In this document: positions 10,239 through 63,746 of the stretch, one piece after another
Numbering within the stretch: position 1 is the stretch's first letter
Layout: each line of letters opens with the position of its first letter
IMG/VR virus record: IMGVR_UViG_3300005613_000033
Location: 19,132-83,131 of that record
Source: a virus
Taxonomy: Duplodnaviria > Heunggongvirae > Uroviricota > Caudoviricetes
Direction: 5' to 3' (one strand)
DNA: 64,000 nucleotides
Notes under the pieces: model-generated
Told to the model about the DNA's origin: nothing
Seen by the model: only the letters and a program-made list of their open reading frames with translations
Database searches by the model: none
Translations under genes and position numbers: made by a program

Positions 10239-10244
10239 AAATGA

Positions 10245-15205: not shown

Positions 15206-15216
15206 GGAGTTAACCT

Positions 15217-15540: not shown

Positions 15541-15550
15541 TTTTAACAAT

Positions 15551-15589
15551 CCCGACAGTCGGGGGATGTTCCCGACTGTCGGATCTTTT
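15551..15589 (+). terminator. rho-independent terminator
   Basis: CCCGACAGTCGGG..CCCGACTGTCGG stem followed by ATCTTTT. Confidence 0.6.
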
Positions 15590-15631
15590 CACTTGTTACA
15601 AGTTTGAGCAGCAACAGAGTGGAGCAAGCAG

Positions 15632-31432: not shown

Positions 31433-31442
31433 GGAGTAGATG

Positions 31443-36086: not shown

Positions 36087-39000
36087 ATGGCCGACGACAT
36101 TAGGCAGGAATTTGTATTTGATGCTGCTCAGGCTCTCAAGACACTTGAGACATTGACAACGCAGTATGAAAAGCTCAATACTGTGCTTAGAACTCATGCT
36201 AAGACAGTCAAGGGTATCAATACAAGCACACGAAAGATTACTGGCAATTTAATCCAGATTAAAAACGCTGCTAAAGCTGCCGCGGATCAATTACAACGTG
36301 TGTATGGAGCCAAAGCTACAACAGCAACTCAGAAAGCTGCTAAGGCTTCTAGTGCGCCGCCTGTCGATACAGGTCAAGTCAATAAAGCCAAAGCATCCCT
36401 TCAAGAATTGGACGCGGTCGCCCGTAAAACTTTTGCGGGTGCTCCAATCAAAAATCAGAAGCTTTTCAATAGAGGTCTCAATGAATTAGTTTTGGCTTTC
36501 CATCGAAGTGGTGGATCAGTTGCAGACTTTAGAGCTAAGCTAAAATTACTTGACACACAAGTCAATGGTACGCAGACTCGTATGCGATCTGCCATGCGTA
36601 ACATTCAAAATGCTACCAAACAAGCGACTAATACGGATGTTATTCGTAACTTCACCGTATCTTGGCAAACCATGGTTCGTATTGTTACGACTCAATTGAT
36701 TGTTCGATCCTTAAATGTTCTCCGACAAGCATTACGAGACGCAATTAGTGAAGCCCTTGACTTTACTCGGGCAGTAGCAGAAGTTGGTACCATTGCTAAT
36801 AATGCATATGGTGGTTTAGATGACATTGCTAACATTATACGAGAAACCTCTGATGAATTTGGAAAATCTCGACTCGATGTGGCCGAAGGTTTGTATCAAA
36901 CTTTATCGAACCAAGTAGGTAATGCAACTGAGTCATTAAAGGTATTCCAAACTGCAACTAAGCTCTCTATTGCTGCCGTGGGCTCAACTGAAGACGCTGT
37001 TAATCTTTTAACAGCCGCACTTAATGGTTTTGATATTTCAACAAGCCAAGCGGAACTTGTAGCAGCTAAGTTGTTCAAAACTGTCGAGTTAGGTCGTACT
37101 CGTATGAGCGAGCTTGCTAATACTCTGGGTCGAGTTGGTCCATTAGCCAATGCTCTGGGTATTAGTCTGGATGAAACACTAGCAGCTATTGCTACAATTA
37201 CGGTCCAAGGTACTAAGTCGGCTGAAGCTTTGACCCAATTACGTGGTGTCATGCAGGGAATGATTAAACCATCCGAAGACATGAAGAAAATCTTCACGGA
37301 AATCGGTGTGGCCAATGCAGAAGCTGGTATTGCAACTTTTGGTTTCCAAGGTTTCTTGGATGAGATGACCAAGATCACAGGAAAAAGTACCTCCGAGATG
37401 GGGAAACTCATTCGGCGTGTTCGTGGTTTACTTGGTGCTGTTACTCTGGCTAGTGAAGATACCAAAAAGTTCATCGAAAATCTGGAAGAAATTGAAAACG
37501 TAAGTTCACAACTCCTTACTAAAAAGTACAAACTTGTATTTGAAACACCCGGGGAAGAATTTCGTCGGCAGCTAAATGAACTTAAAAACATACTAGTTGT
37601 AGACATTGGTACTGCGCTAGTTGAAGTCGCAAATAACGCACTCAAGTTTGGAAGAGCGTTCGCAAGCGCTCTCCCCTCTCTCAAAGCTATGGGACTCGTT
37701 CTAGCGGTAGCATTACTCCCACGACTCAAGTTAATGTTATTCTCCTTGCAAGCTTACGGAACAGCATTAGCGTTAGTTATAATCAATCATACTCGCTTCC
37801 TAGTTCACTCTATTGCAACATTGACCCCACAAATAGGATTGTGGAGGGCTTTAACAACCACCGTAGGTTTCTACAACGTAGCATTAGCGGGGGCGACTCT
37901 TGGATTAAGTCTACTCGCTGCAAGTGTAGTGGGCGCAATCTACTACTTTGACCAGCAAGAAAAAGCTGCGGAAAAATCAGCCAAAGCATTAGTCAAACTT
38001 GCTGAAGCTCAATCTGAATACCAAAAAGCTCTGGACCTCAAAGAAATTGAACTCTTCACAGACTTAGAGAAAAGATGGGCCGATACTCAAAGTCGAGAGG
38101 CGTTGCGTGTTTTAGCCGTGAGTCAAAAAAGCTACAATTCACGAATATCATCAGCTAAAGCTGCTGACCAAGAAGAGCAAGCGAGTGCGAAAGATAAGTT
38201 CAACAACATGTCCAAGTTATTGGATCAGTATGTTGCAGACTACAAAAAGGAAATCGACAATCTTGGTAAATTACGAGAAGACTCCGAACACCGTGTTGAT
38301 GGTATAGTTAGGAGCGCTGAACAAGCTCGATTTGACCGAAGCACACGGTTCCTTGGTGCCCAACAAAAATTAGATGCTCAACGTGCTCGTGGTTTGAAAT
38401 TACAGCGTGAAGCTAGTAAGTATCTGATTACTGGTGACCCAGATAAAATTCAACGTGGATTAGCGTTGTATCGAGAAGCAGGTAAAATCTTTGATGGTAT
38501 CCGAGATATTGCTTACGATCAATTAGAACCTTTGGAAACTGCATGGCGTGCCGGAAAATTATCTGCCGATCAGTTCAATAATCTCCAGAAAGCTAGGCGT
38601 GCTGACAATGCCGCAAATCAACTTGGAGTTAATCTTTCAAATGAGCAGCTAAAAGCGGAACGTGCCTTACAACAAGTTTTAGACGCCCGTGCCGCTAAGG
38701 CTAAAGCAGACGTAGAATATCAGAAACAACTCAACGCCAAACTCAAGACTCAGTTTGATATTGTCCTTGACAATATGAAAACGTTAGACGATAGTGGTCG
38801 AATCCTGGACGAGAAGGTCTTAAAAAATCAAGCTAAATCCAGAGAGGCAGCATTTGCTCGAATTCGAGAATTAGCCAGTGAAACATTAGGGGGTTTAGAT
38901 TTAGCTGACCAACTTCAATTGGCATCATTGAAAGCAGATATCGAATCAGCATTTTCCCCAACCACTATCGCACTTAATGAAGAGGCAATGAATACAGCGT

Positions 39001-40133
39001 CAGATCGTGTTCGGCAAGCCTTTTTAACTGGTATGGATGCAGCGACTCGCGAATGGTCAACTTCATTGGATCTTGCAAGAACTTTAGTCCCAGGTTTTGA
39101 TCCCTCGGAAGGATTTGGGGAAGCTCAAGAAGCCGTTGCTAAAATGACTAAGGATTATAAAGACTTAGTAGACAAAGCAAGTGAAGTTGAGCGAAAACAA
39201 GTCAAGATTCGGAAAGCTATCACTGACACGACAGCACAGCAAAGAAACATGCTAGATACCATGGTGGTCCCTAGCTTCTTTACAGACACCTATGTTGATA
39301 CCGCTGGAAGTATTTCCCAAATGCTGAATCAATTGCGAGATGCTCGCTCAGTTTCTGTAGAAATGGTTCAAAGTGGAAAACAGCTAGTTCAAACCTTCCG
39401 AGACATGGGTTTGGAATTATCAAAAGGCTCTGGATCAAGAGGTAAAATCTTAGCCTTTGCCGATATGGCTGATAACATATTAGAAGCTACACAGAATGTT
39501 GGTGTTCTAAAATCCGAATTAACTGAACTTGAAAAACAACATATTGGTCTAGGTGGTTTTGAAAGACAAGCCGCACTTGCAAAAATATTAGAAGATGGAG
39601 CTATGCAACGAACAGAGCATCTGAATCGAAACAGAGAGGCGATCCAAAAATCTTTGGGTATCACTAATCAATATGTTGTCGCAGATCAAAAATTAACAGA
39701 GTCTACTCGGAAACGAAGGGATTATCTACAAGACATAAATCGAATTAACGCGGCACAAGGTCGTATTGGTACAACGGCCAAAGCTCAAACAGAAGCAATA
39801 CAATTACGAACTCAAGGTTTTATGAAAGGTGGTTTAGTTAAAAGCTTAATGTATTTAGCGAAAGGTAATTTAGCGCGTGGTACAGATACGATTCCTGCGA
39901 TGTTAAGTCCTGGTGAATTTGTAATGAATGCCAAATCCACAAGGCGTTTTTACTCCCAACTTGTGGCAATGAACAGAGGACAAAAACCAATCTATCGCCA
40001 AGAAGGCGGTCCAGTTACAAATGTAACGGTTGGTGATGTAAATGTGCAGGGTGGAAAGAACCCAGCGCAAACAGGGAGACAAATTGTTGGTGCAATCAAA
40101 CGTGAATTGCGCCGTGGTACATCTTCGTTTTAA
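36087..40133 (+). CDS. tail tape measure protein
   Basis: 1348 aa, highly alpha-helical with coiled-coil character. Central hydrophobic segments (LVLAVALLPRLKLMLFSL..., ALAGATLGLSLLAASVVGAIYYF). Sits between the chaperone and distal tail genes. Confidence 0.8.
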   Translation: MADDIRQEFVFDAAQALKTLETLTTQYEKLNTVLRTHAKTVKGINTSTRKITGNLIQIKNAAKAAADQLQRVYGAKATTATQKAAKASSAPPVDTGQVNKAKASLQELDAVARKTFAGAPIKNQKLFNRGLNELVLAFHRSGGSVADFRAKLKLLDTQVNGTQTRMRSAMRNIQNATKQATNTDVIRNFTVSWQTMVRIVTTQLIVRSLNVLRQALRDAISEALDFTRAVAEVGTIANNAYGGLDDIANIIRETSDEFGKSRLDVAEGLYQTLSNQVGNATESLKVFQTATKLSIAAVGSTEDAVNLLTAALNGFDISTSQAELVAAKLFKTVELGRTRMSELANTLGRVGPLANALGISLDETLAAIATITVQGTKSAEALTQLRGVMQGMIKPSEDMKKIFTEIGVANAEAGIATFGFQGFLDEMTKITGKSTSEMGKLIRRVRGLLGAVTLASEDTKKFIENLEEIENVSSQLLTKKYKLVFETPGEEFRRQLNELKNILVVDIGTALVEVANNALKFGRAFASALPSLKAMGLVLAVALLPRLKLMLFSLQAYGTALALVIINHTRFLVHSIATLTPQIGLWRALTTTVGFYNVALAGATLGLSLLAASVVGAIYYFDQQEKAAEKSAKALVKLAEAQSEYQKALDLKEIELFTDLEKRWADTQSREALRVLAVSQKSYNSRISSAKAADQEEQASAKDKFNNMSKLLDQYVADYKKEIDNLGKLREDSEHRVDGIVRSAEQARFDRSTRFLGAQQKLDAQRARGLKLQREASKYLITGDPDKIQRGLALYREAGKIFDGIRDIAYDQLEPLETAWRAGKLSADQFNNLQKARRADNAANQLGVNLSNEQLKAERALQQVLDARAAKAKADVEYQKQLNAKLKTQFDIVLDNMKTLDDSGRILDEKVLKNQAKSREAAFARIRELASETLGGLDLADQLQLASLKADIESAFSPTTIALNEEAMNTASDRVRQAFLTGMDAATREWSTSLDLARTLVPGFDPSEGFGEAQEAVAKMTKDYKDLVDKASEVERKQVKIRKAITDTTAQQRNMLDTMVVPSFFTDTYVDTAGSISQMLNQLRDARSVSVEMVQSGKQLVQTFRDMGLELSKGSGSRGKILAFADMADNILEATQNVGVLKSELTELEKQHIGLGGFERQAALAKILEDGAMQRTEHLNRNREAIQKSLGITNQYVVADQKLTESTRKRRDYLQDINRINAAQGRIGTTAKAQTEAIQLRTQGFMKGGLVKSLMYLAKGNLARGTDTIPAMLSPGEFVMNAKSTRRFYSQLVAMNRGQKPIYRQEGGPVTNVTVGDVNVQGGKNPAQTGRQIVGAIKRELRRGTSSF

Positions 40134-40716: not shown

Positions 40717-40761
40717 AGTTGGTTAGGGAAGCCCTTGTAGGGCTTCCCGGCCAACTCTTTT
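40717..40761. terminator. bidirectional hairpin terminator between convergent genes
   Basis: GGGAAGCCC-TTGTA-GGGCTTCCC with outer GTTGG/CCAAC pairing and a T-run on the plus side. Lies between the 40158 gene (+) and the HNH gene (-). Confidence 0.55.
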
Positions 40762-41278
40762 AGTCTATATATTCCCAACCATAACCACCTGTTGTTTTAC
40801 GACGCCCATTACAAACATTCCAGATGTTACTATGCGGGCATCCAGTTTCTTCTGCCGCAATACTCATGTTAATAAATTCAACACCATCTGATCTTCTAAC
40901 AGATCGACCACCATGTGTACCATCTCGACGTTTATCAAAACCATCTTCACTTTTTGTCCCATAACAGAGATTAGAAACTGAATTATCTGATATTCCATTA
41001 GGACCATGTCGAATTACACACCCCTCAAAAGGGCCAATTAACCAAGCATTAGCGACAAGATGATGAACATAATGAGTTTTCTTAATACCTTCTTTTGATA
41101 ATCTTAATACAAGATAACCACTTGTGGCTGCGGGTATAAGCTTTAGAATTTTACCCCTCCAATTACGGAATCCACCTTTAGAGTGGCGAATAATCCGATC
41201 AACTGACCTGACACGACCTAAGTTGCTAACTTCGTAATAACCCTCATAATTAACAACATCTTTCCATTGTTCGTCCAT
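40760..41278 (-). CDS. HNH homing endonuclease (NUMOD4 N-terminus + HNH_3)
   Basis: N-terminus MDEQWKDVVNYEGYYEVSNLGRVRS (NUMOD4-like). HHLVANAWL...RHGPNG...DNSVSNL (HNH). Paralogue of 56637-57206. Opposite strand, inside the tail operon. Confidence 0.85.
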   Translation of the reverse strand: MDEQWKDVVNYEGYYEVSNLGRVRSVDRIIRHSKGGFRNWRGKILKLIPAATSGYLVLRLSKEGIKKTHYVHHLVANAWLIGPFEGCVIRHGPNGISDNSVSNLCYGTKSEDGFDKRRDGTHGGRSVRRSDGVEFINMSIAAEETGCPHSNIWNVCNGRRKTTGGYGWEYID

Positions 41279-41318: not shown

Positions 41319-42362
41319 ATGCTTCGATTACTGGAAGGATTCGATTTCTACGGTGTCTCGGGCCGCACAGGTTCGGGTCTGAATACCGATATAAAAAGAC
41401 GTCACGAAGGCGGTTCTATCCTTAATGGAACTGATGGTCAGCTTATTACTGGTAGAGGAGGAGATGGTTTAGCCTTAGAATTTAATTATGATAGTGACAA
41501 CAAAGTTTATTTATCACGTTATGAACCCGGAGAATCTGATACAATAATCGTGGGGTTTGCTTTCAAATCGCCTTCAAATTATTCGACAGAATCTTCACGT
41601 AAGATATTTGAATTTGTCTATGGTCATCTAATGCTGTATTGGGTACAAGGTGCTTTGTATCTTAACAATTATGATTGGACAACTGCGATACCACTTGGTT
41701 ATGCATTGAAGCCGAATCGTTGGTATTATTTTGAATTCAAAATCTACTTTCATTCAACATTAGGAACTCTTGATGTGAAGGTGAATGGTCAAACACTATA
41801 CAGTGATACCAATATAGACACTCTCTATGACTCACAATCACACACTCTGATTACATTGCATGCACCAGAAGATAACAGCGGATTTGATGATCTTTATATC
41901 TGTGATAATACTGGCTCTGACAATAATGATTTTCTAGGTCCAATTAAAGTTGAAACCTTGCGACCGGATGGTGACGATGGTTCACAAAATTGGACACCAA
42001 GTACTGGAGGCAATCATTCCGCACTCGTAAATGCCGCAAATATGTGGGATCAAACCGATTACATTGAAGCTTCTGGAGCGAATATCGATGATCTCTGGAC
42101 CTACTCTAATTTAGCCACAATCACGGGGGCAATTTATGGCGTGCAACTGATTACAGCAGCTTGGACAGACGTAGGATTGCCGCTCATTTTACAGTCTATA
42201 TGTGACTCGGGTAGTACTGTAGAGTATTCCCCAAGTAAGGGAATTGGGGTTGATAAGCTTCCAGCGACTCATGAAATGATTTGGGAAACCGATCCGGATA
42301 CAACAAATGCGTGGACTGCAAATGGTGTTAATGGGGCTTCTTTTGGCGTAAGGAAAGTCTAA
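41319..42362 (+). CDS. tail protein paralogue 1 of 3 (347 aa)
   Basis: Shared motifs with the next two genes: L(L)EGF(D/E)xxG N-terminus, DGDDxxxxWT, YGVQL, ETDP(D/E)TxNAW...FGV C-terminus. Confidence 0.55.
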   Translation: MLRLLEGFDFYGVSGRTGSGLNTDIKRRHEGGSILNGTDGQLITGRGGDGLALEFNYDSDNKVYLSRYEPGESDTIIVGFAFKSPSNYSTESSRKIFEFVYGHLMLYWVQGALYLNNYDWTTAIPLGYALKPNRWYYFEFKIYFHSTLGTLDVKVNGQTLYSDTNIDTLYDSQSHTLITLHAPEDNSGFDDLYICDNTGSDNNDFLGPIKVETLRPDGDDGSQNWTPSTGGNHSALVNAANMWDQTDYIEASGANIDDLWTYSNLATITGAIYGVQLITAAWTDVGLPLILQSICDSGSTVEYSPSKGIGVDKLPATHEMIWETDPDTTNAWTANGVNGASFGVRKV

Positions 42363-43417
42363 TGGCATTACGTGGAATAGAGGGTTGGAGTGGGTATACA
42401 GGACTCACGTATACCACATTTGAAAATATCCTTCAGGCTAAATGGCCTGGAAGTTATTGGATGGACGATTCAACTGTGAGTACAGATAGTGACCGCTTTC
42501 CCAGTGAAGATGTTTGGCGACCAACAGACAGCGGTAGTGAAGCTTGGGTTTTTGATCTACTTGATAATCCGGAAGAAATTGCTTGTGGTCTGTATCTTAA
42601 AAGCAATTCTGGTAGTAGTAGCCGAAATAATTTCTACCCCATCATTACAATCAATAACGGTAGTTATGCACATATTCAAATTGAGGCTAGTCCAATAGAC
42701 ATTCGCGTCAAACTTCTCCATAGCAGCACTGTCGTTGCTACTTTTTACTCAGTCTTGGAGGCACGGCGGTGGAATCTAATTGAACTTAAAGCTAAGGTCC
42801 ATGATACAACGGGGTATTGGGAAATATACGTTAATGGTGTACTGATTGGGTCTAACACAGGTATCGACACCAAATACAGTACCTATAATGTGAATCAAGT
42901 CCGGTTTCATGGCGGACTTGCCTATAATAAAATAGGCGATACTTATTGTTGTGACTTAACTGGTAGTAAGAATAATGATGTATTAGGACCATTTCATATT
43001 CAAGGTATTCTACCTAATGCTAATGGAGATGATAGTGATTGGACTCCTAGTGCCAACGCCGATAATTACACAATGGTCAATGATGTAACAGCCAATGAGA
43101 GCGATTACGTTGAATCAGGGACTCCAGCAGATCAAGACTTGTACAATTATGAAAATTTGAGTGGGACATGGGACGAGATTTTTGGTCTTCAAATCAATAC
43201 ACGACTCTTCATGGATAGTGCTAATTCCGAGACTATTGCAGTCCTTTGTTCATCAAATAGTACAGAGGATAGTGCAAACTTTACTGCAAATAATGATTCA
43301 GTGGGGATGGGTGATGAAGCCCAATTTATGCGAATCTTAGAAAATGATCCAGATACATCAAATGCCTGGGACCCAACAGATATTGATAGTGCCCAATTTG
43401 GTGTCAAGTTTATCTAA
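42362..43417 (+). CDS. tail protein paralogue 2 of 3 (351 aa)
   Basis: Same motif set (NGDDSDWTPS, FGLQI, ENDPDTSNAWDPTDIDSAQFGV). TAATG overlap. Confidence 0.55.
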   Translation: MALRGIEGWSGYTGLTYTTFENILQAKWPGSYWMDDSTVSTDSDRFPSEDVWRPTDSGSEAWVFDLLDNPEEIACGLYLKSNSGSSSRNNFYPIITINNGSYAHIQIEASPIDIRVKLLHSSTVVATFYSVLEARRWNLIELKAKVHDTTGYWEIYVNGVLIGSNTGIDTKYSTYNVNQVRFHGGLAYNKIGDTYCCDLTGSKNNDVLGPFHIQGILPNANGDDSDWTPSANADNYTMVNDVTANESDYVESGTPADQDLYNYENLSGTWDEIFGLQINTRLFMDSANSETIAVLCSSNSTEDSANFTANNDSVGMGDEAQFMRILENDPDTSNAWDPTDIDSAQFGVKFI

Positions 43418-43432
43418 TTGAGGGAGTTAGAT

Positions 43433-44461
43433 ATGGCGGGTTTGCTTTTTATGGAAGGTTTTGAAACCTTCGGTGCGAATGGTGACACCGGGAGTGCGTT
43501 GCAAGATGTAATACGAACCAAATGGCCTCAAGTCACTCTGAGTTCCAGTGCTAAACTTAGTGATGATGCCTATGAAAGTCAAGGACTTTGTCTTGACGGC
43601 GTCAGTGGTAGCTCATCGTATCGCCTTACCTACAATCATCATACCGCTACCAACGAACTGATTGTAGGGTTTGCTTGGTACACGGGTACACTTTCATCAT
43701 ATTACTTGTACCAGGCTATAAGTCTGAATTCCCAATTTAGGTTATATGCGTATAGTGATGGACATTTTCGTATTTACCATGGGTCAACTAACACTGATAC
43801 AGGTATACTATTTTCTGCCAATACTTGGTATTATGTTGAAGTCAAATTCAAAGTGGATAGTTCACCCAATGGATATTGGGAACTTTATTTGGATGGTGAT
43901 CTAAAAGCATCTGAAACAGGAGTCGCTACATGGTCAACTTCATATCCAAAAGAAGTCTCCTCCCACAACTGGATTCCAAGAAATGTAGGTTGTCGTTTTG
44001 ATGATATATACATCTACGATAACACCGGAGATGTTCAAGAGCCCTTCGGCCCTGTGAAGATACGTGCGTTGCTTCCTGACGGTGATGATACAACTGATTG
44101 GACTTCAACGGGGGCTAATCACTATGATCAAGTAAACGATGTTCCTGTTGATACAGCCAACTACGTAGAAAGTAATACGGCAAATGATGTAGATTTGTTT
44201 ACTTTTGCTAACGCACCTGACCCATCGAATTGGCCAATATACGGTGTGCAGCTAAATCTCTATGCTGCCGTCACCGATGTTGGTCTTTTTACATTAGAGG
44301 GTATTACGGACTCGAATGGTTATCAAGATACAGCTAACGAAACTATCATTGACCATTTAGGCGGTCAGTATGCATTCATTTTTGAAACTGATCCTGAAAC
44401 CTCGAACGCTTGGACAATAGATCAACTTAATGATGCTAAATTTGGCGTAGGAGTAGAGTAA
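43433..44461 (+). CDS. tail protein paralogue 3 of 3 (342 aa)
   Basis: ATG at 43433 with RBS GAGGGAG. DGDDTTDWTS, YGVQL, ETDPETSNAWTIDQLNDAKFGV. Confidence 0.55.
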   Translation: MAGLLFMEGFETFGANGDTGSALQDVIRTKWPQVTLSSSAKLSDDAYESQGLCLDGVSGSSSYRLTYNHHTATNELIVGFAWYTGTLSSYYLYQAISLNSQFRLYAYSDGHFRIYHGSTNTDTGILFSANTWYYVEVKFKVDSSPNGYWELYLDGDLKASETGVATWSTSYPKEVSSHNWIPRNVGCRFDDIYIYDNTGDVQEPFGPVKIRALLPDGDDTTDWTSTGANHYDQVNDVPVDTANYVESNTANDVDLFTFANAPDPSNWPIYGVQLNLYAAVTDVGLFTLEGITDSNGYQDTANETIIDHLGGQYAFIFETDPETSNAWTIDQLNDAKFGVGVE

Positions 44462-46083
44462 TGGCCAATGCTAGGCTATCTCGACAGCAAGTAGAAGTCA
44501 TTGGACGATTAACTTCCAAACTTCGGGTTGGTGGTCAAAGTCTCATGGTGGCTGGTGCTGCACAGAATGGAAAGTTGCGTGTCCATGGGGTCACTCTGGA
44601 ATACATGACTAAAATCCTTCCTGAAGAAGCCAGTAGTGATATAGGTGTTGACCAGGGCATAGTTGTGTCTCATGTGGCCCAGAGAGGGGCTGTGAGCGAT
44701 CTCAGTGGCACTTTAGGGCAAGTGGTCGCACTGAACGGGAGTGTCTACAACAAGGCCCCTGGGGACACAATAGGGCCTACTGAGTCTGGAATTGAACATT
44801 CGGTACAAGTGAGTGTAGTTCGCAATCTTTCAGCTAATAATGCTCTCTCCTTAGACCAAGATGCTTTTATACAGCAGCCCACGTTTAGTGATATTGGAAT
44901 TGACCATTCGGTTCAAGTCAGTGTTGTTCGCAATTTATCAATTGGGAATACAGTAGGCGTAGGCCAAGGAACGGGTACAAACCAACACATAGAAAGTGCT
45001 AACAGTGATCTAGTAGGTTTAGATTCAGAAGCTACTACTATCCAAGCTTTCAGTCGCTCTGCTAATAGCAATTTAGCAGCGACACTCGACCATAGTTCCA
45101 CTGTAATTGTTGCAAAAACCGCTCAAAATACTATTGGGATTAGCCAGACTGTTGAAGGTTACAGAGTACTATCCTTCAATGTTGAAAATGAATTAAATTT
45201 GCAACAAATCCCCTTCCCGGTATCACATCCATTTGCTAGCAGTGATATTGGTATAGACCATAGTGTCAGTGTTCAAAAGATTCTCCATAGATCCCTTTCA
45301 CATGATATTGGAATCTCTCACAATTTTGTTAGGACAGGCAACCTACGAGTCGGCGCATTTAATGTTTTGTCAGGTTGGAGTTGGGTGTGGAATCCATCAA
45401 CCAAAACGTATGAAGAGACGTGGGTTCAAATGACATCGACGGCTGAAGTTGAATATGTAAAGGGTGTAGATCAGATTTGGGAATCCGCTAGTAGTCAAAT
45501 AGAACTTGGCCAATCAGTTTCTTACCAGGCCATATTCAATCAAGCCCCAGCAACAGATATTAATATCAAACAAACGCTTGGATACTCATTTATTCAAGAT
45601 ACAACATTCTGTGATTATGATCCATCTGTTGGATGGACTTCAAATACATATGCGCCATTACCACCACCAGTAACACCACCAGTTCTTGAGCCAGAATTAT
45701 ATGACGGTGTGCAGCTTTCCTATCCATCTACTACGCCCACAGATGTAATTTATCTGCGAGGCCCAGAGCTAGGGAACGTCGATCAATTTAATACCCAACG
45801 TATCAATCGTGAGTCTCGGGGTGGTCATCTAGTTGTTTTCCGAGATTTCTATTGGCCCCGAACTAAGACAATGCGATTTTCATTCACAGGATTAACTGAA
45901 CAAGAAGGACAAGAGGTTCTCGATTTCGTTGAAACCTCTGTAGGTAAGGAAGTTAAACTTCGAGATTGGGAAGGTCGAGAATGGTTGGGTGTAATTACTT
46001 CAACTAACGAACCTGTAGTGCGTAAACAAGATAGTTGTAATCTCACCACTGATCTAGAATTTGAACTCACAGATGGAACTTAA
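44461..46083 (+). CDS. 540-aa fibre-like protein with the same ~27-aa repeat family as the 26507 gene
   Basis: Units such as SDIGIDHSVQVSVVRNLSANNALSLD and SSDIGIDHSVSVQKILHRSLSHDIGISH. PPPVTPPV linker, then a C-terminal globular part. Confidence 0.5.
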   Translation: MANARLSRQQVEVIGRLTSKLRVGGQSLMVAGAAQNGKLRVHGVTLEYMTKILPEEASSDIGVDQGIVVSHVAQRGAVSDLSGTLGQVVALNGSVYNKAPGDTIGPTESGIEHSVQVSVVRNLSANNALSLDQDAFIQQPTFSDIGIDHSVQVSVVRNLSIGNTVGVGQGTGTNQHIESANSDLVGLDSEATTIQAFSRSANSNLAATLDHSSTVIVAKTAQNTIGISQTVEGYRVLSFNVENELNLQQIPFPVSHPFASSDIGIDHSVSVQKILHRSLSHDIGISHNFVRTGNLRVGAFNVLSGWSWVWNPSTKTYEETWVQMTSTAEVEYVKGVDQIWESASSQIELGQSVSYQAIFNQAPATDINIKQTLGYSFIQDTTFCDYDPSVGWTSNTYAPLPPPVTPPVLEPELYDGVQLSYPSTTPTDVIYLRGPELGNVDQFNTQRINRESRGGHLVVFRDFYWPRTKTMRFSFTGLTEQEGQEVLDFVETSVGKEVKLRDWEGREWLGVITSTNEPVVRKQDSCNLTTDLEFELTDGT

Positions 46084-46085
46084 CC

Positions 46086-46823
46086 ATGGTCAAACACCAC
46101 GCTCAAGGTAAATTTCGTCAGCGACGTGCCCCGTTGGATATACATCCAAATTGTGAAGCCCCACCGTATATTTCATACAACGAGGCAGTACCATTAAAAC
46201 CACAAGATCCATTTATCTTTCTATGGATGCCTAAAGTAGCTGGTATGAGCATTAGTACAGCTCTAAAACATAATTACGGTCAAACTTACTTGGCTTTAGA
46301 GAATGCCCCCAATCGTTGGCACACTCAGTTAAGGGGTGTGACATTTTACCATAGTCATATTCCAGCATTGGTAGAAGCTGGACAAATTCCAGGCCCTTGG
46401 GTAGACAAAGCTTTTAAGTTTGCTTTCGTAAGAAATCCGTGGGATCGAATGGTCTCTTTGTATCACTGGTTACAATGGGATAAGAAGGGGATGAGCTTTA
46501 ACGAGTTTATTCAAGGAATCTCGCTTGGAAACTATAATCTACCTGGAACAAAGAATGTTCGTGGTTTGTATCAAGCTAATCGTTTAGTTGATTGGTTACG
46601 ACCAAATGGTATTTGGTACCCTCAATGGATAGGGCGATTTGAAAATCTCACAGAAGATTGGAAAATCATTCAAAAGATTTTAGGATTTATGGGCAGTCTT
46701 CCTAAATCTAATGCTTCAAAGCATACACATTATCGAGACTACTATGATCTCCATACCAGAGAGTTAGTAGCAAAAAGATTTGAAGAAGATATCGACCTCT
46801 TTAAGTATACCTTCGAGGCTTAA
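46086..46823 (+). CDS. sulfotransferase-family protein
   Basis: 5'-PSB-like PKVAGMS, 3'-PB-like RNPWDRMVSLYHW, C-terminal SNASKHTHYRDYYD. These are the PAPS-binding motifs of the sulfotransferase fold. Confidence 0.55.
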   Translation: MVKHHAQGKFRQRRAPLDIHPNCEAPPYISYNEAVPLKPQDPFIFLWMPKVAGMSISTALKHNYGQTYLALENAPNRWHTQLRGVTFYHSHIPALVEAGQIPGPWVDKAFKFAFVRNPWDRMVSLYHWLQWDKKGMSFNEFIQGISLGNYNLPGTKNVRGLYQANRLVDWLRPNGIWYPQWIGRFENLTEDWKIIQKILGFMGSLPKSNASKHTHYRDYYDLHTRELVAKRFEEDIDLFKYTFEA

Positions 46824-46824
46824 A

Positions 46825-47220
46825 ATGAGTGTATTATTCGGCGCAATCTACCCAGAGATACAGACAACAACGTTGCTTCCTAATCCTGTATTAGGGGATT
46901 CAGAAGCTTCAACAGTTGAAGTACAAACGCGGCGGGCATTAGATGGTACATTGTATACTTACACAAAGACAAAATTAGGACGCCGTCGTCTAGTACTGAA
47001 TTTTCGAGTTACTAGAATGAAGGGTTTAGAATTCTATGAATTTATTAGGTCTTACCATGGGTATCAAATAAAGTATCAAGATCATCTTGATCGAGTTTGG
47101 ATCGGATATATTGTCAACAATCCATTTGAGTTTACTACATCCGAACGCTGGCGATCCAGACGTTATCCTCATGGGGAAATGATGGAATTCACTGTCGAAT
47201 TTGAGGGGGTTCAACAATGA
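46825..47220 (+). CDS. hypothetical tail protein (131 aa)
   Basis: ATG at 46825 with RBS GAGG. The ORF-track start at 46780 overlaps the previous gene by 44 nt. Confidence 0.45.
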   Translation: MSVLFGAIYPEIQTTTLLPNPVLGDSEASTVEVQTRRALDGTLYTYTKTKLGRRRLVLNFRVTRMKGLEFYEFIRSYHGYQIKYQDHLDRVWIGYIVNNPFEFTTSERWRSRRYPHGEMMEFTVEFEGVQQ

Positions 47221-49895
47221 GAACACTATCAGCCAACGCAACAACAGCATTAGCTGAAAATCTGGGTACAGAACCCATTTACATTATCAATGTTCAGTGG
47301 CGTGATGAGGCTGGTGTCTATCGATATGCAGATCGACCCATTCCGGTACTAGGTATTGAGTGGTTGATTCAAGAGGCCAGTGATCTGGATGCTGTTATTA
47401 CATCTACATCTGACTCACAACAAGTGAATGTAACTTTAGATGATAGTCTTGGTATAATCAAGAATTTGATGGATTACTATGATCTTCATAAACGACCTGT
47501 ATGGGTTTATCAATGGTTTGATGGATTCAGTCAAGGTGATGCAATTCTTCTTTTCAAAGGTGAAGTCAACTCTCCAATTACTTGGAGTGCATCAAATCAA
47601 ACAGTCTCTTTTGATATTGTGACAAAGATTGAAGACAAAGAACTCGGATTTTCACCTGAGGAGGGTGAATTTAGCTTCATTGCGAATGAACTAATTGGGG
47701 AACCATGGCCTTTGTGTTTTGGAACAGTCGTGAATAGTAAAACATTAAAGCTTACCAAACCAGCTATTGGTATAACTGCCGATGGTATAGCAATAGCTGA
47801 TCCTGCAATATATGCAAGAATGGAGGCACTACGAGTTCAAATTGAAATGTTTCAAGCTCAACAAGAAGAATATGTTTACTATGCAGCTTTAGCTCGACTT
47901 GATGGTAACGAGGCTGCCGCTGAATATAATCAAGGAATTGCTGATGATTCAGCAGAATCATGGCAAAATCGTCAACGAGAATACAATGAACTAGAAGAAA
48001 AATATCGTGAGCAATTAGCTACTGTAGTATCGTCTTTTAGGATGTTTAATGCGGACGACTTTCCTAGTGGTACTGTAGATGTTCGAGTAGGGGAAATATA
48101 TTTCACAGGATATAAATCTGGTTCGGATTTCATTATCACTAGTATGACGCACCCAAAGTTGATTCAAGACTCTACAGCAATATTACCTTACTGTGATGGA
48201 TTCTATACCTCTTATTCCTACACCGGGGGTTGGGAAACATATCGTGGTCCAGATGATGGCAACCCTGCGTGGCAACCCACTGCATGGATTAAAGGCGATA
48301 ATGACTGGGGTTACTACTATGAAAATCCCGGTAGTAATGTATACTTAGTTACGAATGAACCTCAACAATACATTGTGAGTCTTGTCCCAGGTACTATTCA
48401 TAATGTAAGCACTTTACTTCAACGTGAAGGTCAGAAATTTTTAGCTGAAGTACCATCAAATAAATGGTCCCAATCCTGGAGGGATTTCGGACCGGTTGGG
48501 GCTGTAACTTTGGATATAACTGATGCATTATCTAAGGAAGTAGATGTTGGTTATAGTGATGAACTTTACGTCACATTTACTTCTAGTGTAGGACCTAACA
48601 CTGTTGATATCTTGAAATGGGTTATTGATAACTACACTGAATTTAGTTATGATACTACTAGTTTCGATCATGTTGAAACTCGACTTGCAGACTATCCAAG
48701 CCATTTTTCTATTGCGGAAAAATTCAACGTAATGGATTTTCTCCATGACGTAGCTTGGCAGGCTCGTTGTAGTATTCGGTTAATCAATGATGTGTTCTTT
48801 CTTACCTATTTACCGGAAATTCCAACATCTGTCGCAACTATTACTGAATCTGAAATTGACGTAGGAAGTTTTGAGCTTGACCACACGGCTACCGAGAATC
48901 TTACAACTAAAATGGTTTGTAATTGGTGGGCTACAGGTGTTCAAGAGAAACCTAATCGTGCAATTCTTCGGCATAATGTTGCCAAGTACGGTATCCATGA
49001 ATCAACCTATGATTTTTTTATCTATACAAAACTAGATTTAGTGCTTAAAAGTGCTACATTTTGGATGATTCGCTATGCTAACACATGGAAGATTGCTCGA
49101 TTTACAACACCCCTTAAACTCTTGGGTGTTGAAACTCAAGACGGTGTAACATTAGATTTTTCAGTACCATTTCAATATATTGCCAATGGACCTATTGTCG
49201 CTTTAGTTGAAGAAGCAAGCTATAATTCAGCAGATCGTAGTATTCAATTTCAATGTTGGACAGGTGTTAAAGCGGGGCAGATGGAACAATATGATTTTGC
49301 GTATCCAGCCGATGTAGATTCAACATTGACTTTCCCAACATCTGAAGAAATCGAAGCTGGATATGATGGTGGGTGGGGTAATAACAAATCAGCCAACGGG
49401 ACATTAGGTTCAGTAGAGTTAGAAGATCGTGTTAATCGTATTGAATATACTATTGGTGATTCCTTCAATATGGGTTCTCGACGTTACAATGATAGAGGTA
49501 ACCCTACACCCTCAGATAGTAACGATAGTAGTGCCGGTTCTCCAGTAATTACTGCTGCGCCTATTTTATCAGTAGCAAATCCCGGCCCTTATCTAACTGA
49601 TATTACCGAATTTAGTACACCTGACCCTGTATCAGCAACACAGGGTGGAATTACACGAATTGATTTACATGACACACTAATTTATGATAGTGAAACAGGT
49701 TTAACAACGACTCTGGATACCTTTTTCTCTAAAATTGATGCGGCCTATGATAAATCTGGTAACCATCTCCATGCAAGAACGGACGCCTCTTGGGCTGGTG
49801 ATGGTGCGGAAGATGGTCGTCAATTTATATTCCAGTATGATACAGATTTAGGTATTTATGGAGCCGGATTAGCTTATATATACGATGACGACTAA
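47217..49895 (+). CDS. large tail protein (892 aa; tip, fibre or hub candidate)
   Basis: ATGA overlap. Called from position in the tail module and size. Confidence 0.45.
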   Translation: MRTLSANATTALAENLGTEPIYIINVQWRDEAGVYRYADRPIPVLGIEWLIQEASDLDAVITSTSDSQQVNVTLDDSLGIIKNLMDYYDLHKRPVWVYQWFDGFSQGDAILLFKGEVNSPITWSASNQTVSFDIVTKIEDKELGFSPEEGEFSFIANELIGEPWPLCFGTVVNSKTLKLTKPAIGITADGIAIADPAIYARMEALRVQIEMFQAQQEEYVYYAALARLDGNEAAAEYNQGIADDSAESWQNRQREYNELEEKYREQLATVVSSFRMFNADDFPSGTVDVRVGEIYFTGYKSGSDFIITSMTHPKLIQDSTAILPYCDGFYTSYSYTGGWETYRGPDDGNPAWQPTAWIKGDNDWGYYYENPGSNVYLVTNEPQQYIVSLVPGTIHNVSTLLQREGQKFLAEVPSNKWSQSWRDFGPVGAVTLDITDALSKEVDVGYSDELYVTFTSSVGPNTVDILKWVIDNYTEFSYDTTSFDHVETRLADYPSHFSIAEKFNVMDFLHDVAWQARCSIRLINDVFFLTYLPEIPTSVATITESEIDVGSFELDHTATENLTTKMVCNWWATGVQEKPNRAILRHNVAKYGIHESTYDFFIYTKLDLVLKSATFWMIRYANTWKIARFTTPLKLLGVETQDGVTLDFSVPFQYIANGPIVALVEEASYNSADRSIQFQCWTGVKAGQMEQYDFAYPADVDSTLTFPTSEEIEAGYDGGWGNNKSANGTLGSVELEDRVNRIEYTIGDSFNMGSRRYNDRGNPTPSDSNDSSAGSPVITAAPILSVANPGPYLTDITEFSTPDPVSATQGGITRIDLHDTLIYDSETGLTTTLDTFFSKIDAAYDKSGNHLHARTDASWAGDGAEDGRQFIFQYDTDLGIYGAGLAYIYDDD

Positions 49896-49916
49896 TCACT
49901 TTTGGCGAGGTGAAAA

Positions 49917-50474
49917 TTGGAAGCTTTTGCATGGCTGTCTGAGATATTCAATGGGCTCTTGAGCTTCATCCCGAGGCCGGTCATTGTCCGTGCTACACAC
50001 GGCGGTGTCAAATGGCGATTCGGAAAAAAAGCTCGTGAAATGAAACCTGGATGGCACTGGTATTGGCCATTCACGACAGAGATAGAAGTTATCGTCACGG
50101 CCCGTCAAACACATGATCTACCGACGCCACAAGCGGTAGAAACACGAGACGGTGTAGCGGTTGCTGTAGGATCACTGATTGTGTATTCAATCAATGATGT
50201 TGTACAAGCAATCGGCGAGCGAAATTGGGATGTTGATTCCACTGTGAATGATATTACCAAAGCCGCGATAGTCGGAGTTGTAAGTCAATGGGACTACAGT
50301 GACCTCCGTGACGAACTGACTGAACAAGTAGAAAAAGAATTGACAGAGATGTGCAGAAAACATCTCCGTCAATTTGGAGTTTATGTACATCGTTGTGCTG
50401 TTTCTGATTTCAGTCACACGACAGTACGAATGCTCTTTGGAATGCAAAATATGAATCAATTTGGGGATGAATAA
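49917..50474 (+). CDS. SPFH/band-7 domain protein (short)
   Basis: TTG start with RBS GAGGTGA. Hydrophobic N-terminus then PVIVRATHGGVKWRFGK...PGWHWYWPF...IEVIVTARQ, matching the SPFH entry pattern. Confidence 0.45.
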   Translation: MEAFAWLSEIFNGLLSFIPRPVIVRATHGGVKWRFGKKAREMKPGWHWYWPFTTEIEVIVTARQTHDLPTPQAVETRDGVAVAVGSLIVYSINDVVQAIGERNWDVDSTVNDITKAAIVGVVSQWDYSDLRDELTEQVEKELTEMCRKHLRQFGVYVHRCAVSDFSHTTVRMLFGMQNMNQFGDE

Positions 50475-53115: not shown

Positions 53116-53354
53116 TCAGGGTCTCCTAATTTGTTCATCTTGCAAGCTCGTCTCCAAGATTGCAGATTACCTTGTTGTGTATTGAAGTTTCTTTCGGCTG
53201 CCCATTCATTGAAAGCAGCTACGAGTTTATCACGCTGGTATCCACCTCCTATGATAATAGGAGATGGTGACTCAATCAAATGAAGTAATAAGTCTGCAAA
53301 CCCGCCCGCTATAAACTGTCTCTCATCATCCTGGAGTTTATCCTCCATTACCAA
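53112..53354 (-). CDS. hypothetical protein (80 aa)
   Basis: ORF with 4-nt overlap, inside the replication operon. Confidence 0.35.
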   Translation of the reverse strand: MVMEDKLQDDERQFIAGGFADLLLHLIESPSPIIIGGGYQRDKLVAAFNEWAAERNFNTQQGNLQSWRRACKMNKLGDPE

Positions 53355-53886
53355 TCTCCTCCATGACCATATCTACCAGTTGAATCAATCCACTTCTCTC
53401 TGAATCATCAGGATAGGATTCCTTGATTCCCAGCGGATTGGATTTTATATCCAGTGGGTTGAAAGGTAGATCATTTAATGTTTCGGGTAACAACCCTTCC
53501 TCAATCCGCATCCGTGTCTCAATAAGACATAGGAAATTCCAACAGGCCATTGCATCATGTGGCTCATCACGATCCCCACGCAGGTACTTATAGGCATGCC
53601 GCATACTACTGTCAAAGAATCGAGATAATGGAATACCCTTCTCCCAGTTCCTAGAGGCGTATTTCTTGGCACCTTCCTCAAATACTTTGGCTACTTCAAA
53701 CAAGGCTCTGGTTGGCAGTAAATCCATCCGTCCTTTTCCCTCTTGAGTATCCCTAACAGCCCCCGTCCCAAATTCTGAACGAGTCCCTGAGTCTTTGAAT
53801 TTGCTTTCACCATTATCACCCGACATATCTTCAACCTCTTCAGTTCTTGTTTGTGTAATCATCGCCCGCCGCCTCCGACGTTTCAT
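53338..53886 (-). CDS. hypothetical protein with KYxxxNW motif (possible nucleotide pyrophosphohydrolase-like)
   Basis: RBS GGGGGAG. DLLPTRALFEVAKVFEEGAKKYASRNWEKG. Arg-rich N-terminus. ATGA overlap with the upstream gene. Confidence 0.3.
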   Translation of the reverse strand: MKRRRRRAMITQTRTEEVEDMSGDNGESKFKDSGTRSEFGTGAVRDTQEGKGRMDLLPTRALFEVAKVFEEGAKKYASRNWEKGIPLSRFFDSSMRHAYKYLRGDRDEPHDAMACWNFLCLIETRMRIEEGLLPETLNDLPFNPLDIKSNPLGIKESYPDDSERSGLIQLVDMVMEEIGNGG

Positions 53887-56636: not shown

Positions 56637-57206
56637 CTACTTCTCTTCATTAACATACTCCCATCCATAACCACCCCCAGTGTGTTGTCGTCCATTACAA
56701 GTACCCCAGATACTTTGAACTTGACAACCTGTTTCTTTGGCCGCAAGAGTCATATTGATAAATTCAACACCATCGCTACGTCTAACATGTCTGCCATTAT
56801 AGGTACCATCCCTACGCCTATCAAGTTGGTCTTGACTTTTAGTACCATAACAAAGGTTAGATATAGAATTGTCCAATTTACCATTAGACCCATGGCGAAC
56901 TTGCTGACCATCGGGGCACGGACCAATCCACGCCGCTGCTACAAGCCTATGAACCGTAAAAGTTCTTCGTGTACCTCTTTTGTACAAATTCACTGAGAGA
57001 TGCCCATAAATATTGTTAGGTATAGCTGACAAGATTAAATCTTTTCGCCTATACTTCCTTCCACCTATCGAACGAACGCGACCGAGATTGGAGACAGCAT
57101 AATAGTCTTCATACCCAGGAATATCTCGCCATCGTTCATCTAGGTCCATATTTAAGCGGGCGACAACTTCAATGTCTTGCCAGATTTCTTCTTGAATTGT
57201 GTCCAT
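56637..57206 (-). CDS. HNH homing endonuclease (paralogue of 40760-41278)
   Basis: RWRDIPGYEDYYAVSNLGRVRS (NUMOD4-like). C-terminal half is near-identical to the other copy (RHGSNGKLDNSISNLCYGTKSQD...RRSDGVEFINM...GGYGWEYV). Confidence 0.85.
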   Translation of the reverse strand: MDTIQEEIWQDIEVVARLNMDLDERWRDIPGYEDYYAVSNLGRVRSIGGRKYRRKDLILSAIPNNIYGHLSVNLYKRGTRRTFTVHRLVAAAWIGPCPDGQQVRHGSNGKLDNSISNLCYGTKSQDQLDRRRDGTYNGRHVRRSDGVEFINMTLAAKETGCQVQSIWGTCNGRQHTGGGYGWEYVNEEK

Positions 57207-59531: not shown

Positions 59532-59641
59532 TGAGGATACGATTAGGGGCGAGGTAACCCCTCGCCCCAATTATTAACTAAACCTTTTTAGCCGGATGTT
59601 CCTGCTTAACTTTTTGTTTCTCGTTTTTTGGAGATTATGTG

Positions 59642-60535
59642 ATGCGTATGAAGTCCACTGTACTTCTGTGTGTGGTTGGTGTTGTGACGTTGTTTCTTTT
59701 GATTTTCGGTATGAACTGCTTCAAGACTGTTGATGCTGGGCATGTGGCTGTGGCCTCGTTGTTCGGTAACGTGGTCGATGATGTTTACACTGAAGGGCTA
59801 CAGTTCCCTGTGAATCCATTATATGCGTGGTCCGAATATGATATTCGGGAAAAGAACTTGGATGTTCCGAAGGTGCCGATTCCTACTAAGGATCAGCAAA
59901 CTTCGTTTATCGACGTTAGTGTGATCTATCGGATCAATCCAACATCCTGTCCGGCCGCGAAGTCCGATGTAGGGTTGGCTGAGGACATTGTGAATGTGAA
60001 GCTCGCGCCAAATTTGCGTTCACAGTTGCGTTCCGAAGGTAAAGCTGTCGTGCGTTGTGAGGAACTGTTTAACGAAACTATTCAGGCAACGATGCAGGCA
60101 AATCTTCAGACTCGTCTTCAGGCCAAGGTTGGCAAGTATGCCACGATTACGTCGGTCTTGATTCGCAATATTGAGTTGCCTGGCCATATTCGGGATGCGA
60201 TCAAGAATAAGAAGGTACGTGAGCAGTTGGCCGAACAGCAAAAGGCAGAACTCCTCCGGTTTAAGACCGAGATGGAGCAGAAGGCTGTTCAAGCTGCTGC
60301 TGAGAAGGCGGCTGCTACCGAGGAAGCTGAACAGGTTAGGATTCTTGCAGACGCACAGGCTTATGAGATCGAAGCGATCAATAATGCTGTAGCAAATAGT
60401 CCTGCGTACATCCAGTTGGAAGCCTTGAAGACTCTTAGTGAGATTTCTAAGGACCCGGCCTCGAAGATGTACTTCATGGACGGCAATTCGTCGATGCCCT
60501 TGCCTCTTCTGCACATGGGTGACGGCGTCAAGTAA
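59642..60535 (+). CDS. SPFH/prohibitin-family membrane protein
   Basis: N-terminal TM LLCVVGVVTLFLLIFG. SPFH core VDAGHVAVASLFGNVV...TKDQQTSFIDVSVIYRINP. C-terminal coiled coil EQQKAELLRFKTEMEQKAVQAAAEKAAATEEAEQ. Confidence 0.65.
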   Translation: MRMKSTVLLCVVGVVTLFLLIFGMNCFKTVDAGHVAVASLFGNVVDDVYTEGLQFPVNPLYAWSEYDIREKNLDVPKVPIPTKDQQTSFIDVSVIYRINPTSCPAAKSDVGLAEDIVNVKLAPNLRSQLRSEGKAVVRCEELFNETIQATMQANLQTRLQAKVGKYATITSVLIRNIELPGHIRDAIKNKKVREQLAEQQKAELLRFKTEMEQKAVQAAAEKAAATEEAEQVRILADAQAYEIEAINNAVANSPAYIQLEALKTLSEISKDPASKMYFMDGNSSMPLPLLHMGDGVK

Positions 60536-60638: not shown

Positions 60639-60711
60639 AGTGGGATAGAGCAGTGGTTAGCTCGGCGGCCTCATAAGTCGCAGGTCGAGGGTTCAAATCC
60701 CTCTCCCACCA
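60639..60711 (+). tRNA. tRNA with CAU anticodon (Met or Ile2-type)
   Basis: Hand-folded cloverleaf: D arm GAGC/AGUGGUUA/GCUC, anticodon loop CUCAUAA, T arm GAGGG/UUCAAAU/CCCUC. No encoded CCA. 1:72 apparently unpaired, so the boundaries are approximate. Confidence 0.65.
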
Positions 60712-60722
60712 TTTCGATTTAT

Positions 60723-60795
60723 AGCGGGGTGGAGCAGTGGTTAGCTTGTCGGTCTCATACGCCGAAGGTCGGAGGTTCAAATCCTTCCCCCGCAA
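60723..60795 (+). tRNA. second tRNA with CAU anticodon
   Basis: Anticodon arm UCGGU/CUCAUAC/GCCGA, T loop UUCAAAU. Boundaries approximate. Confidence 0.6.
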
Positions 60796-60845
60796 CTTAT
60801 CGTGTCCATGTTAAGCTAGTCCTGACGCAGAGGAGAAGGAATAAG

Positions 60846-63670: not shown

Positions 63671-63746
63671 GCCGGTGTAACTCAATTGGTAGAGTACCAG
63701 TTTTGTAAATTGGATGTTAAGGGTTCAAGTCCCTTCACCGGCTCCA
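63671..63746 (+). tRNA. tRNA-Thr (UGU), CCA encoded
   Basis: Perfect 7-bp acceptor stem GCCGGUG/CACCGGC. D arm ACUC/AAUUGGUA/GAGU. Anticodon arm CCAGU/UUUGUAA/AUUGG. T arm AAGGG/UUCAAGU/CCCUU. Discriminator U then CCA. Confidence 0.7.

Follow-up and report, generated by a model that had tools for sequence, protein, structure and literature searches.

A predicted PAPS-dependent sulfotransferase gene inserted into the tail-tip operon of an uncultured marine siphophage lineage

The stretch of DNA that we analyzed, hereafter the window, comprises 64,000 nt (positions 19,132 to 83,131 of IMG/VR record IMGVR_UViG_3300005613_000033) and derives from a tailed phage with a GpA-type terminase, a P22-like coat protein, two large Laminin_G_3-bearing proteins, and a tape measure protein. 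We examined the gene at positions 46086..46823 (plus strand, ATG start, stop codon included), which encodes a 245-amino acid (aa) sulfotransferase, hereafter ST, of the Sulfotransfer_2 family. An earlier note had assigned this open reading frame (ORF) to the sulfotransferases from three motifs, and both the ORF and the motifs lie where it had placed them. On the opposite strand, numerous stop codons interrupt the reading frames.

Profile searches allow us to place ST with confidence in the Sulfotransfer_2 family, whose members depend on 3′-phosphoadenosine 5′-phosphosulfate (PAPS). Residues 38-241 aligned with positions 6-251 of the 252-position Pfam profile PF03567 (E 7.8e-15, 56.1 bits, gathering cutoff 22), and this was the sole Pfam family reported at E values up to 1. 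Residues 40-244 likewise matched positions 8-218 of the 219 in PHROG 3347 (E 1.2e-21), a family in the moron/auxiliary metabolic gene (AMG) category whose label, 'galactose-3-O-sulfotransferase', is an annotation and not a tested specificity. A large protein database yielded 714 homologues, nearly all with PF03567. NCBIfam and PADLOC have no family for ST and so neither refine its subfamily name nor tie it to a defense system.

We examined the motifs in an alignment of 50 homologues with identities to ST down to ~30%. The 5′-phosphosulfate-binding motif, PKVAGMS (46230..46250, plus strand, aa 49-55), fits the PKxxGxS/T loop, and its K50, G53, and S55 are invariant. The 3′-phosphate-binding motif, RNPWDRMVSLYHW, lies at 46431..46469 on the same strand (aa 116-128); its first 11 residues, RNPWDRMVSLY (aa 116-126), satisfy the pattern RxPxxRxxSxY, with R116, N117, and S124 invariant and P118, W119, D120, and Y126 at least 90% conserved. 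In the C-terminal block HTHYRDYYD (46722..46748, plus strand, aa 213-221), Y216, Y219, and Y220 are invariant, as is E186. H91 (46356..46358, plus strand), a candidate catalytic base, is at least 90% conserved. A profile search of the kind proposed in the earlier note thus returned PF03567 above its cutoff instead of an unrelated P-loop family, and the motif residues proved to be conserved.

An AlphaFold2 model of ST built from the same alignment had a mean predicted local distance difference test score (pLDDT) of 90.4 and a predicted template modeling (TM) score of 0.88. When we compared this model to the Protein Data Bank (PDB) with Foldseek, at least the top 30 matches were all PAPS-dependent sulfotransferases, at TM scores of only ~0.5; they include SULT1A3, a bacterial protein (3rnl), NDST, and the heparan sulfate 3-O- and 6-O-sulfotransferases. 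The best viral structural match reached TM scores of 0.69/0.80. A search of the PDB with the ST sequence found no close solved structure, returning only chance-level matches to glycoside hydrolases (E ~0.8). The fold, the profiles, and the motif conservation together bear out the PAPS-binding signature on which the earlier assignment was based. ST has no hydrophobic N-terminal segment or membrane-targeting feature in its sequence, which suggests a soluble cytoplasmic enzyme that would draw on host PAPS. Taken together, the sequence and the model predict that ST is very likely an active cytoplasmic PAPS-dependent O-sulfotransferase.

ST begins with a basic extension (aa 1-34; 46086..46187, plus strand) that follows the pattern M..[QK][YH]..(K/R-rich)..P[LW][ED][IV][YH]P[ND]C. 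The extension (~26-34 residues) is conserved solely in ST and its closest relatives, the tail-tip clade described below (P0002-P0009). Its occupancy is <30% in distant homologues, and it is absent from other phage and cellular homologues. In the AlphaFold2 model its pLDDT ranges from 46 to 84.

The gene for ST lies within a module that begins with the tape measure gene (36087..40133, plus strand; 1348 aa; PF10145, E 1e-25). Downstream of the tape measure gene come a 181-aa gene, an HNH/NUMOD4 gene on the opposite strand, three paralogs, and a 540-aa gene, followed by ST, a 131-aa gene, an 892-aa gene, and an SPFH/Band 7 gene. The 892-aa protein (47217..49895, plus strand) is the tail-tip/baseplate hub. 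Its AlphaFold2 model (pLDDT 80.5) matched T5 pb3 best in Foldseek (7zqp_b, E 2e-16), then the DT57C baseplate; it also matched lambda gpJ (8xcg/8k35, ~1e-10), followed by other siphophage tail-tip proteins. Since the 892-aa protein has the hub fold and its gene is the second one downstream of ST, ST belongs to the core tail-tip assembly operon. The earlier note had described the surroundings as a tail-fiber cluster; the tail region stands, while the neighbors that can be identified are a tape measure and a tail-tip hub, not proven fibers.

ST is tightly packed between its neighbors. The TAA stop codon of the 540-aa gene is followed by CC and then by the ATG of ST, a gap of 2 nt, and the TAA of ST is followed by a single A before the ATG of the 131-aa gene. 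In the flanks of ST, we found no bracketing sigma-70-like promoter or terminator, with site counts not above those in shuffled sequence, although the host's promoter types may differ. Because of this packing, and because ST has no promoter or terminator of its own, ST is likely co-expressed late with the tail genes. Its base composition matches its surroundings: GC content is 0.397 versus 0.412 for the module, and GC at third codon positions (GC3) is 0.325 versus 0.25-0.38 in the neighboring genes.

The same placement is found in four diverged relatives from marine metagenomes, whose ST proteins are 67% (L001/L002), 70% (L008), 56% (L003-L005), and 58% (L102/L103) identical to that of the window; the search of related phages proposed in the earlier note therefore recovered the arrangement. 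Five more distant relatives, with hubs 34-40% identical, lack ST (L009, L010, L011, L100, and L101). In these phages no gene separates the 540-like gene from the 131-like gene, the two being adjacent or overlapping, and gene order is kept to either side (Band 7, RNase T, DUF5906 primase, and ParB). As ST is present in four relatives and the flanking genes are joined directly in five, we conclude that one subclade gained ST as the insertion of a single ORF at one junction.

Since its insertion, ST has ameliorated and has been under purifying selection. Its ratio of nonsynonymous to synonymous substitutions (dN/dS) is ~0.13 against L001, compared with 0.05-0.25 for neighboring genes; as dS is >1, the ratio is approximate. 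The divergence of ST tracks that of the neighboring genes. We considered and rejected a recent horizontal transfer, as GC and GC3 equal those of the neighbors and the best of 585 relatives in genome collections, which are scattered over many phyla, is only 39% identical. The nearest homologue outside phage contigs, P0023, lies on a contig binned into a metagenome-assembled genome (MAG) and is 43% identical.

In a rough neighbor-joining tree, the tail-tip sulfotransferases form one clade, and their sister group consists of phage sulfotransferases that sit among small non-structural genes (L006, L014, and L016). Since the sister clade lies in non-structural regions, the donor of ST was probably the accessory region of another phage. 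In L006, a 133-kb phage contig, two tandem sulfotransferase genes at 10001-11391 encode proteins 48% and 46% identical to ST. Both L006 and L014 have a NifU_N gene a few kb from the sulfotransferase gene, and in L012 one lies near the MAG homologue.

Several observations concern the junction itself. The end of ST, …TTCGAGGCTTAA (window positions 46801-46827), resembles the end of the 540-like gene in two phages that lack ST, …TTCGAGGGCGAG / TTTGAGGGTGAA in L009/L010, and each of these ends provides a GAGG Shine-Dalgarno sequence for the 131-aa gene. The resemblance could reflect microhomology at the insertion site or could be coincidence. In L100, which also lacks ST, an AbiEii/AbiEi toxin-antitoxin pair lies just past the tail module (14149-15695, minus strand), indicating that the same region accepts other accessory cargo. 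Phages that carry ST have GC contents of 41-44%, versus 54-61% for relatives without it. The gain of ST coincides with this difference, which points to a move into another host group.

The phages belong to an uncultured marine siphophage lineage. A megablast search of window positions 44000-50000 against phage genomes gave no match, the hub has no counterpart in any cultured phage, and the best identity of the terminase to one from a cultured phage is no higher than 28%. Among the relatives that lack ST are a prophage integrated in an 8.76-Mb contig and a protein labeled at NCBI as coming from a Planctomycetota MAG. We did not transfer a Planctomycetota host to the window, as this clue comes from relatives with 54-61% GC and not from the ST-carrying clade at 41-44%. 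ORF scans of the window revealed no integrase; the relative integrated in the 8.76-Mb contig is distant. The tRNA genes of the window (60639-60796 and 63671-63746, plus strand), two tRNA-Met (anticodon CAT) and one tRNA-Thr (TGT), were uninformative as to host.

The genes adjoining ST could be characterized to varying extents. The three tandem paralogs (347, 351, and 347 aa; 41319..44461, plus strand) belong to phrog_2448, are 27-36% identical to one another, and gave only weak hints of ConA-like, lectin, or polysaccharide lyase folds; it is possible that they are receptor-binding proteins. Their copy number varies, with one in L101 and L010 and three in L100. The 540-aa protein (44461..46083, plus strand) contains degenerate GI[DE]HSVQVSVVRNLS-type repeats, and its C-terminal ~190 aa are conserved in relatives that lack ST; a search of its gene for tandem repeats in the DNA found none. 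These C-terminal residues share a weak motif with the 131-aa protein (46825..47220, plus strand), which is conserved in all relatives and whose ATG lies 1 nt past the ST stop codon. A TTG start for this gene had been listed at 46780; this start is probably spurious, because the starts of the orthologues line up with the ATG at 46825. Neither the 540-aa and 131-aa proteins nor the paralogs could be identified by searches of Pfam, PHROG, and the PDB. The SPFH/Band 7 gene (49917..50474, plus strand) closes the tail module and is the most conserved gene of the block; its protein is 88-94% identical where the hub is 44-81% identical, which is odd beside fast-evolving tail genes. A second SPFH/Band 7 protein is encoded at 59639-60535 (plus strand). 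The HNH/NUMOD4 homing endonuclease gene between the 181-aa gene and the first paralog (40760-41278, minus strand) is missing from this site in L008; in L003 and L102 it takes a doubled form of 422-423 aa. Another HNH/NUMOD4 gene occupies 56637-57206 (minus strand).

Relatives of ST are widespread among viruses, and we asked what surrounds them. IMG/VR contains 459 viral contigs with an ST relative. Among 132 ORFs flanking 78 of the viral relatives, 29 encode further Sulfotransfer_2 proteins; other flanking ORFs encode GT2, Gly_transf_sug, NodZ, Caps_synth, GT11, and RgpF proteins, together with GDP-mannose dehydratase, RmlD, UDP-galactopyranose mutase (GLF), and methyltransferases. For cellular homologues, the most common Pfam families among 135 ORFs flanking ~75 genes were GT2 (10) and GT1 (5), and the flanks also contain Wzx-type flippases, epimerases, further sulfotransferases, adenosine 5′-phosphosulfate (APS) kinase, and sulfatase. 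P0023 and a homologue from Chitinophagales both sit among GT1/GT2 glycosyltransferases, DegT aminotransferases, and methyltransferases. These contexts point to a carbohydrate acceptor as the probable norm for the family. The acceptor of ST itself leans toward carbohydrate, and on this evidence it may belong to either the host or the virion. We scanned 44 window ORFs, a set that covers almost every non-nested ORF of 100 aa or more, and none of them encodes a PAPS-synthesis enzyme or a glycosyltransferase. An AAA_33 kinase-like ORF (62050-62541) was rejected as an APS kinase, as it gave no match to APS kinase.

Some relatives also lie in structural operons. L108/L109 carry a sulfotransferase that is 42% identical to ST and falls on a different branch of the tree; its gene lies after head and Neck1 genes, between a tail tube gene (PF18906, phrog_290) and a gene the size of a tape measure gene, with overlapping stop and start codons, and the L108 protein matches PHROG 3347. 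In prophage CBW1004C-Prop1, a gene for a distant family-2 sulfotransferase adjoins a gene at the capsid position and precedes that for a 'DNA-stabilizing protein'. Judging from these positions and the tree, the family has entered late structural operons independently at least two or three times. Elsewhere, the sulfotransferase gene of Stenotrophomonas phage DLP6 is among early genes, beside DNA polymerase, and that of Ralstonia phage phiRSL1 is beside an annotated glucosyltransferase gene. The earlier note had called the placement of ST atypical. This is mostly so, in that viral relatives are usually found beside sulfotransferases or glycan enzymes, but the placement is not unique, since at least two other phages show entry into a structural operon.

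We tentatively propose that ST sulfates, late in infection, a host-made glycan that the phage tail recognizes and thereby masks it, a reading that we hold to be quite possible if somewhat short of probable. The ancestor of the low-GC subclade would have taken up a bare ST ORF at the junction between the 540-aa and 131-aa genes, and ST would be made together with the late tail proteins, using the host PAPS pool. The acceptor would plausibly be a carbohydrate, either an envelope glycan or polysaccharide made by the host or a lipid-linked precursor; we take it to be host-made because the scan of the 64-kb window found no glycosyltransferase. More speculatively, sulfation would mask, on infected cells and debris, the ligand of a lectin-rich tail, resulting in less superinfection and fewer progeny lost to re-adsorption. 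We regard the virion as lectin-rich from the Laminin_G_3 domains in its 1641-aa (26507-31432) and 564-aa (31440-33134) proteins. We infer five parts of this proposal: the late co-expression, the cytoplasmic location of the enzyme, the carbohydrate nature of the acceptor, its host origin, and the masking.

Masking would explain why ST is linked to, and co-expressed with, a receptor-recognition module. It also accounts for the glycan-type context of the relatives, the lack of phage glycosyltransferases, and the non-structural location of the sister clade, which indicates that ST function is not intrinsically tied to the tail. Both elements of the proposal have precedents: tail operons are known to harbor accessory exclusion genes (PMC3594210), and some phage enzymes are known to alter surface glycans chemically (PMC3594210, PMC10883804).

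Several points weigh against masking. Classical seroconverting genes are active in a lysogen, whereas ST, lacking a promoter of its own, would not be expressed there, and a protein made late would have little time to remodel the cell surface. The protein has no feature that would target it to a membrane, and the tail-tip clade keeps the N-terminal extension for no purpose that masking explains. The glycan-type context is itself imperfect: the flanks of the cellular homologues are heterogeneous, with Rv2949c-like proteins (7), radical SAM proteins (6), and acyl reductases (5) among them; two of four look-ups of contigs with cellular homologues were uninformative; and both flank censuses used heuristic ORF calls with no matched control. 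Finally, the entries into structural operons in L108/L109 and CBW1004C-Prop1 could point to a virion-directed role.

A virion-directed role, which we consider possible if doubtful, would have ST sulfate a component of the tail or virion during assembly, either a host-attached glycan or Tyr, Ser, or Thr residues, thereby altering charge, stability, or receptor interaction. Such a role would fit the packing of ST between tail-tip genes, its retention though the hubs of relatives are only 44-81% identical, the two further independent insertions into structural operons, and the conserved basic extension unique to the tail-tip clade. Virion glycosylation in mycobacteriophages provides a precedent (Freeman et al. 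2023, cited in PMC11256854). However, the sister clade of ST lies outside structural modules, and no glycosyltransferase was found among the window ORFs scanned. The family also argues against a protein acceptor: PF03567 is of the carbohydrate type, and at E values up to 1 ST did not match PF13469, which we take to be the family of the tyrosylprotein sulfotransferase (TPST/RaxST) type.

The hub offered one lead toward a protein acceptor. In an alignment of 121 hub sequences, we compared 8 assigned to ST-carrying phages, four of them with ST presence verified, to the other 113; one boundary case, P0127, proved to carry ST. Every column whose residue was fixed in the hubs of ST-carrying phages and found in no other hub held a tyrosine (Fisher p 0.003 to 0.0007 versus clade-fixed columns). 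Two of these signatures were subsequently rejected, Y744 as a one-column alignment shift and Y757 because several relatives that lack ST have F or Y there, leaving Y889 as the sole survivor of the 8 versus 113 comparison. This tyrosine precedes the acidic C-terminal tail of the hub only in phages that carry ST, where the C termini read AYIYDDD (the window), AYFYEEE, AFLYEDEEA, AFLYDDV, and AFLYE, versus AFL[QKE][DE] elsewhere. Thus, the signal has largely collapsed to one post hoc column that reflects one evolutionary event, and it does not recur at the ends of the L108 tail tube or Prop1 gp46. That ST sulfates the phage's own tail, with Y889 of the hub as candidate site and the basic N-terminal extension as docking element, strikes us as quite unlikely.

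We also regard as unlikely that ST sulfates a metabolite, signaling compound, or sulfolipid precursor, its site in the tail operon being merely tolerated and serving to give late expression. Metagenomic surveys do list phage sulfotransferases as auxiliary metabolic genes, with no function assigned (PMC8290583, PMC10580990), and some cellular homologues lie beside genes for Rv2949c-like chorismate lyases (7), radical SAM proteins (6), acyl reductases (5), or AMP-binding proteins (3). In contrast, the great majority of viral relatives adjoin further sulfotransferases or enzymes that handle sugars, a glycan cluster surrounds the nearest homologue outside phage contigs, and a metabolic role leaves the retention of ST at one exact tail-tip junction unexplained. 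Although the position of ST between structural genes and its lack of dedicated regulatory signals would suit a sulfotransferase fold co-opted as a non-catalytic tail component, or a decaying passenger, the invariance of all PAPS-binding residues, a dN/dS of ~0.13, the high confidence of the full-length fold model, and the five relatives that build the same tail module without ST make this very improbable.

We compared ST to systems already described. Like other members of PF03567, ST matches the profile over its full length, has both PAPS-binding motifs and the fold, and belongs to a family often found in glycan clusters; it differs in being phage-encoded, soluble, and only 245 aa, in its clade-specific N-terminal extension, and in a fold that matches at TM scores of only ~0.5. 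Profile and tblastn searches place it in the same viral family, PHROG 3347, as the sulfotransferase-like protein of phiRSL1 and DLP6 AAY80_051. These members from cultured phages are at most 28% identical to ST, and their genes are early or accessory (DLP6) or beside a glucosyltransferase gene (phiRSL1). In structure, ST also resembles Roseobacter phage SIO1 gp5.1 and proteins of cyanophages P-SSM7, ACG-2014f, and S-T4, among other viral proteins.

The insertion of ST also resembles that of HK97 gene 15, a superinfection exclusion moron that is likewise an accessory gene found between tail assembly genes in part of a lineage (PMC3594210); the relative in L108 occupies almost the same slot. Unlike such morons, ST lacks a promoter and terminator of its own, shows no GC deviation, and encodes a soluble enzyme rather than a small membrane protein. 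Measured against the features that define morons (PMC3594210), ST is an add-on in some relatives, but it does not form its own transcription unit and does not differ in GC content. Thus, ST is not a classical moron.

The logic that we propose, in which a phage enzyme alters the glycan used for adsorption, is that of Oac of Sf6 and D3 and GtrABC of P22 (PMC3594210, PMC10883804). Oac and Gtr are membrane proteins expressed from the prophage, whereas ST is soluble and probably late and would add sulfate. For the virion-directed alternative, the closest parallel is mycobacteriophage Che8 and its relatives, in which, according to PMC11256854, which cites the work, phage group-transfer enzymes decorate structural proteins; as described there, these enzymes are glycosyltransferases encoded near the genome end, whereas ST is a sulfotransferase encoded in a tail-tip operon. 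A search of the literature for 'phage-encoded sulfotransferase' found no paper. To our knowledge, the addition of sulfate to a surface glycan by a phage enzyme has not been described.

Outside the tail module, the window contains several other features. A protein with a dATP/dGTP diphosphohydrolase N-terminal domain (PF18909, E 1e-21) is encoded at 53338-53886 (minus strand) and is found in the ST-carrying clade (also in L001, L003, and L102); in L100 and L101, which lack ST, we detected only a faint DNMK match on the gene beside RNase T. The PF18909 protein could hint at modified DNA bases; we saw no PurZ-like gene in the window. An intein with a LAGLIDADG endonuclease, recognized by its Intein_splicing and Hint domains, lies within a 1057-aa ORF (5066-8239, plus strand), and a 232-aa protein (8293-8991, plus strand) has a C-terminal thioredoxin domain. 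In the head-tail region, a 2502-aa ORF (15632-23140, plus strand) gave no Pfam match.

ST is a new member of a known viral gene family that is functionally uncharacterized; as a 2023 paper states, the function of sulfotransferases in phages remains unclear (PMC10580990). Our finding amounts to an annotation that is well supported and has an interesting genomic context; it is no new mechanism. What it adds is a well-resolved gain event in a tail-tip operon, together with a clade-specific N-terminal extension. The lineage provides a clean natural experiment, with a defined junction, relatives that carry ST and relatives that lack it, and a separate, independent gain in the tail operon of another phage. 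Should the acceptor be a receptor glycan of the host, sulfation would join the chemistry that phages use for receptor masking. If it is part of the virion, ST would represent a new kind of phage particle modification, and sulfation of tail tyrosines would make this the first sulfated bacteriophage virion and ST the first protein-directed viral member of Sulfotransfer_2. Either outcome would help to interpret a widespread viral gene.

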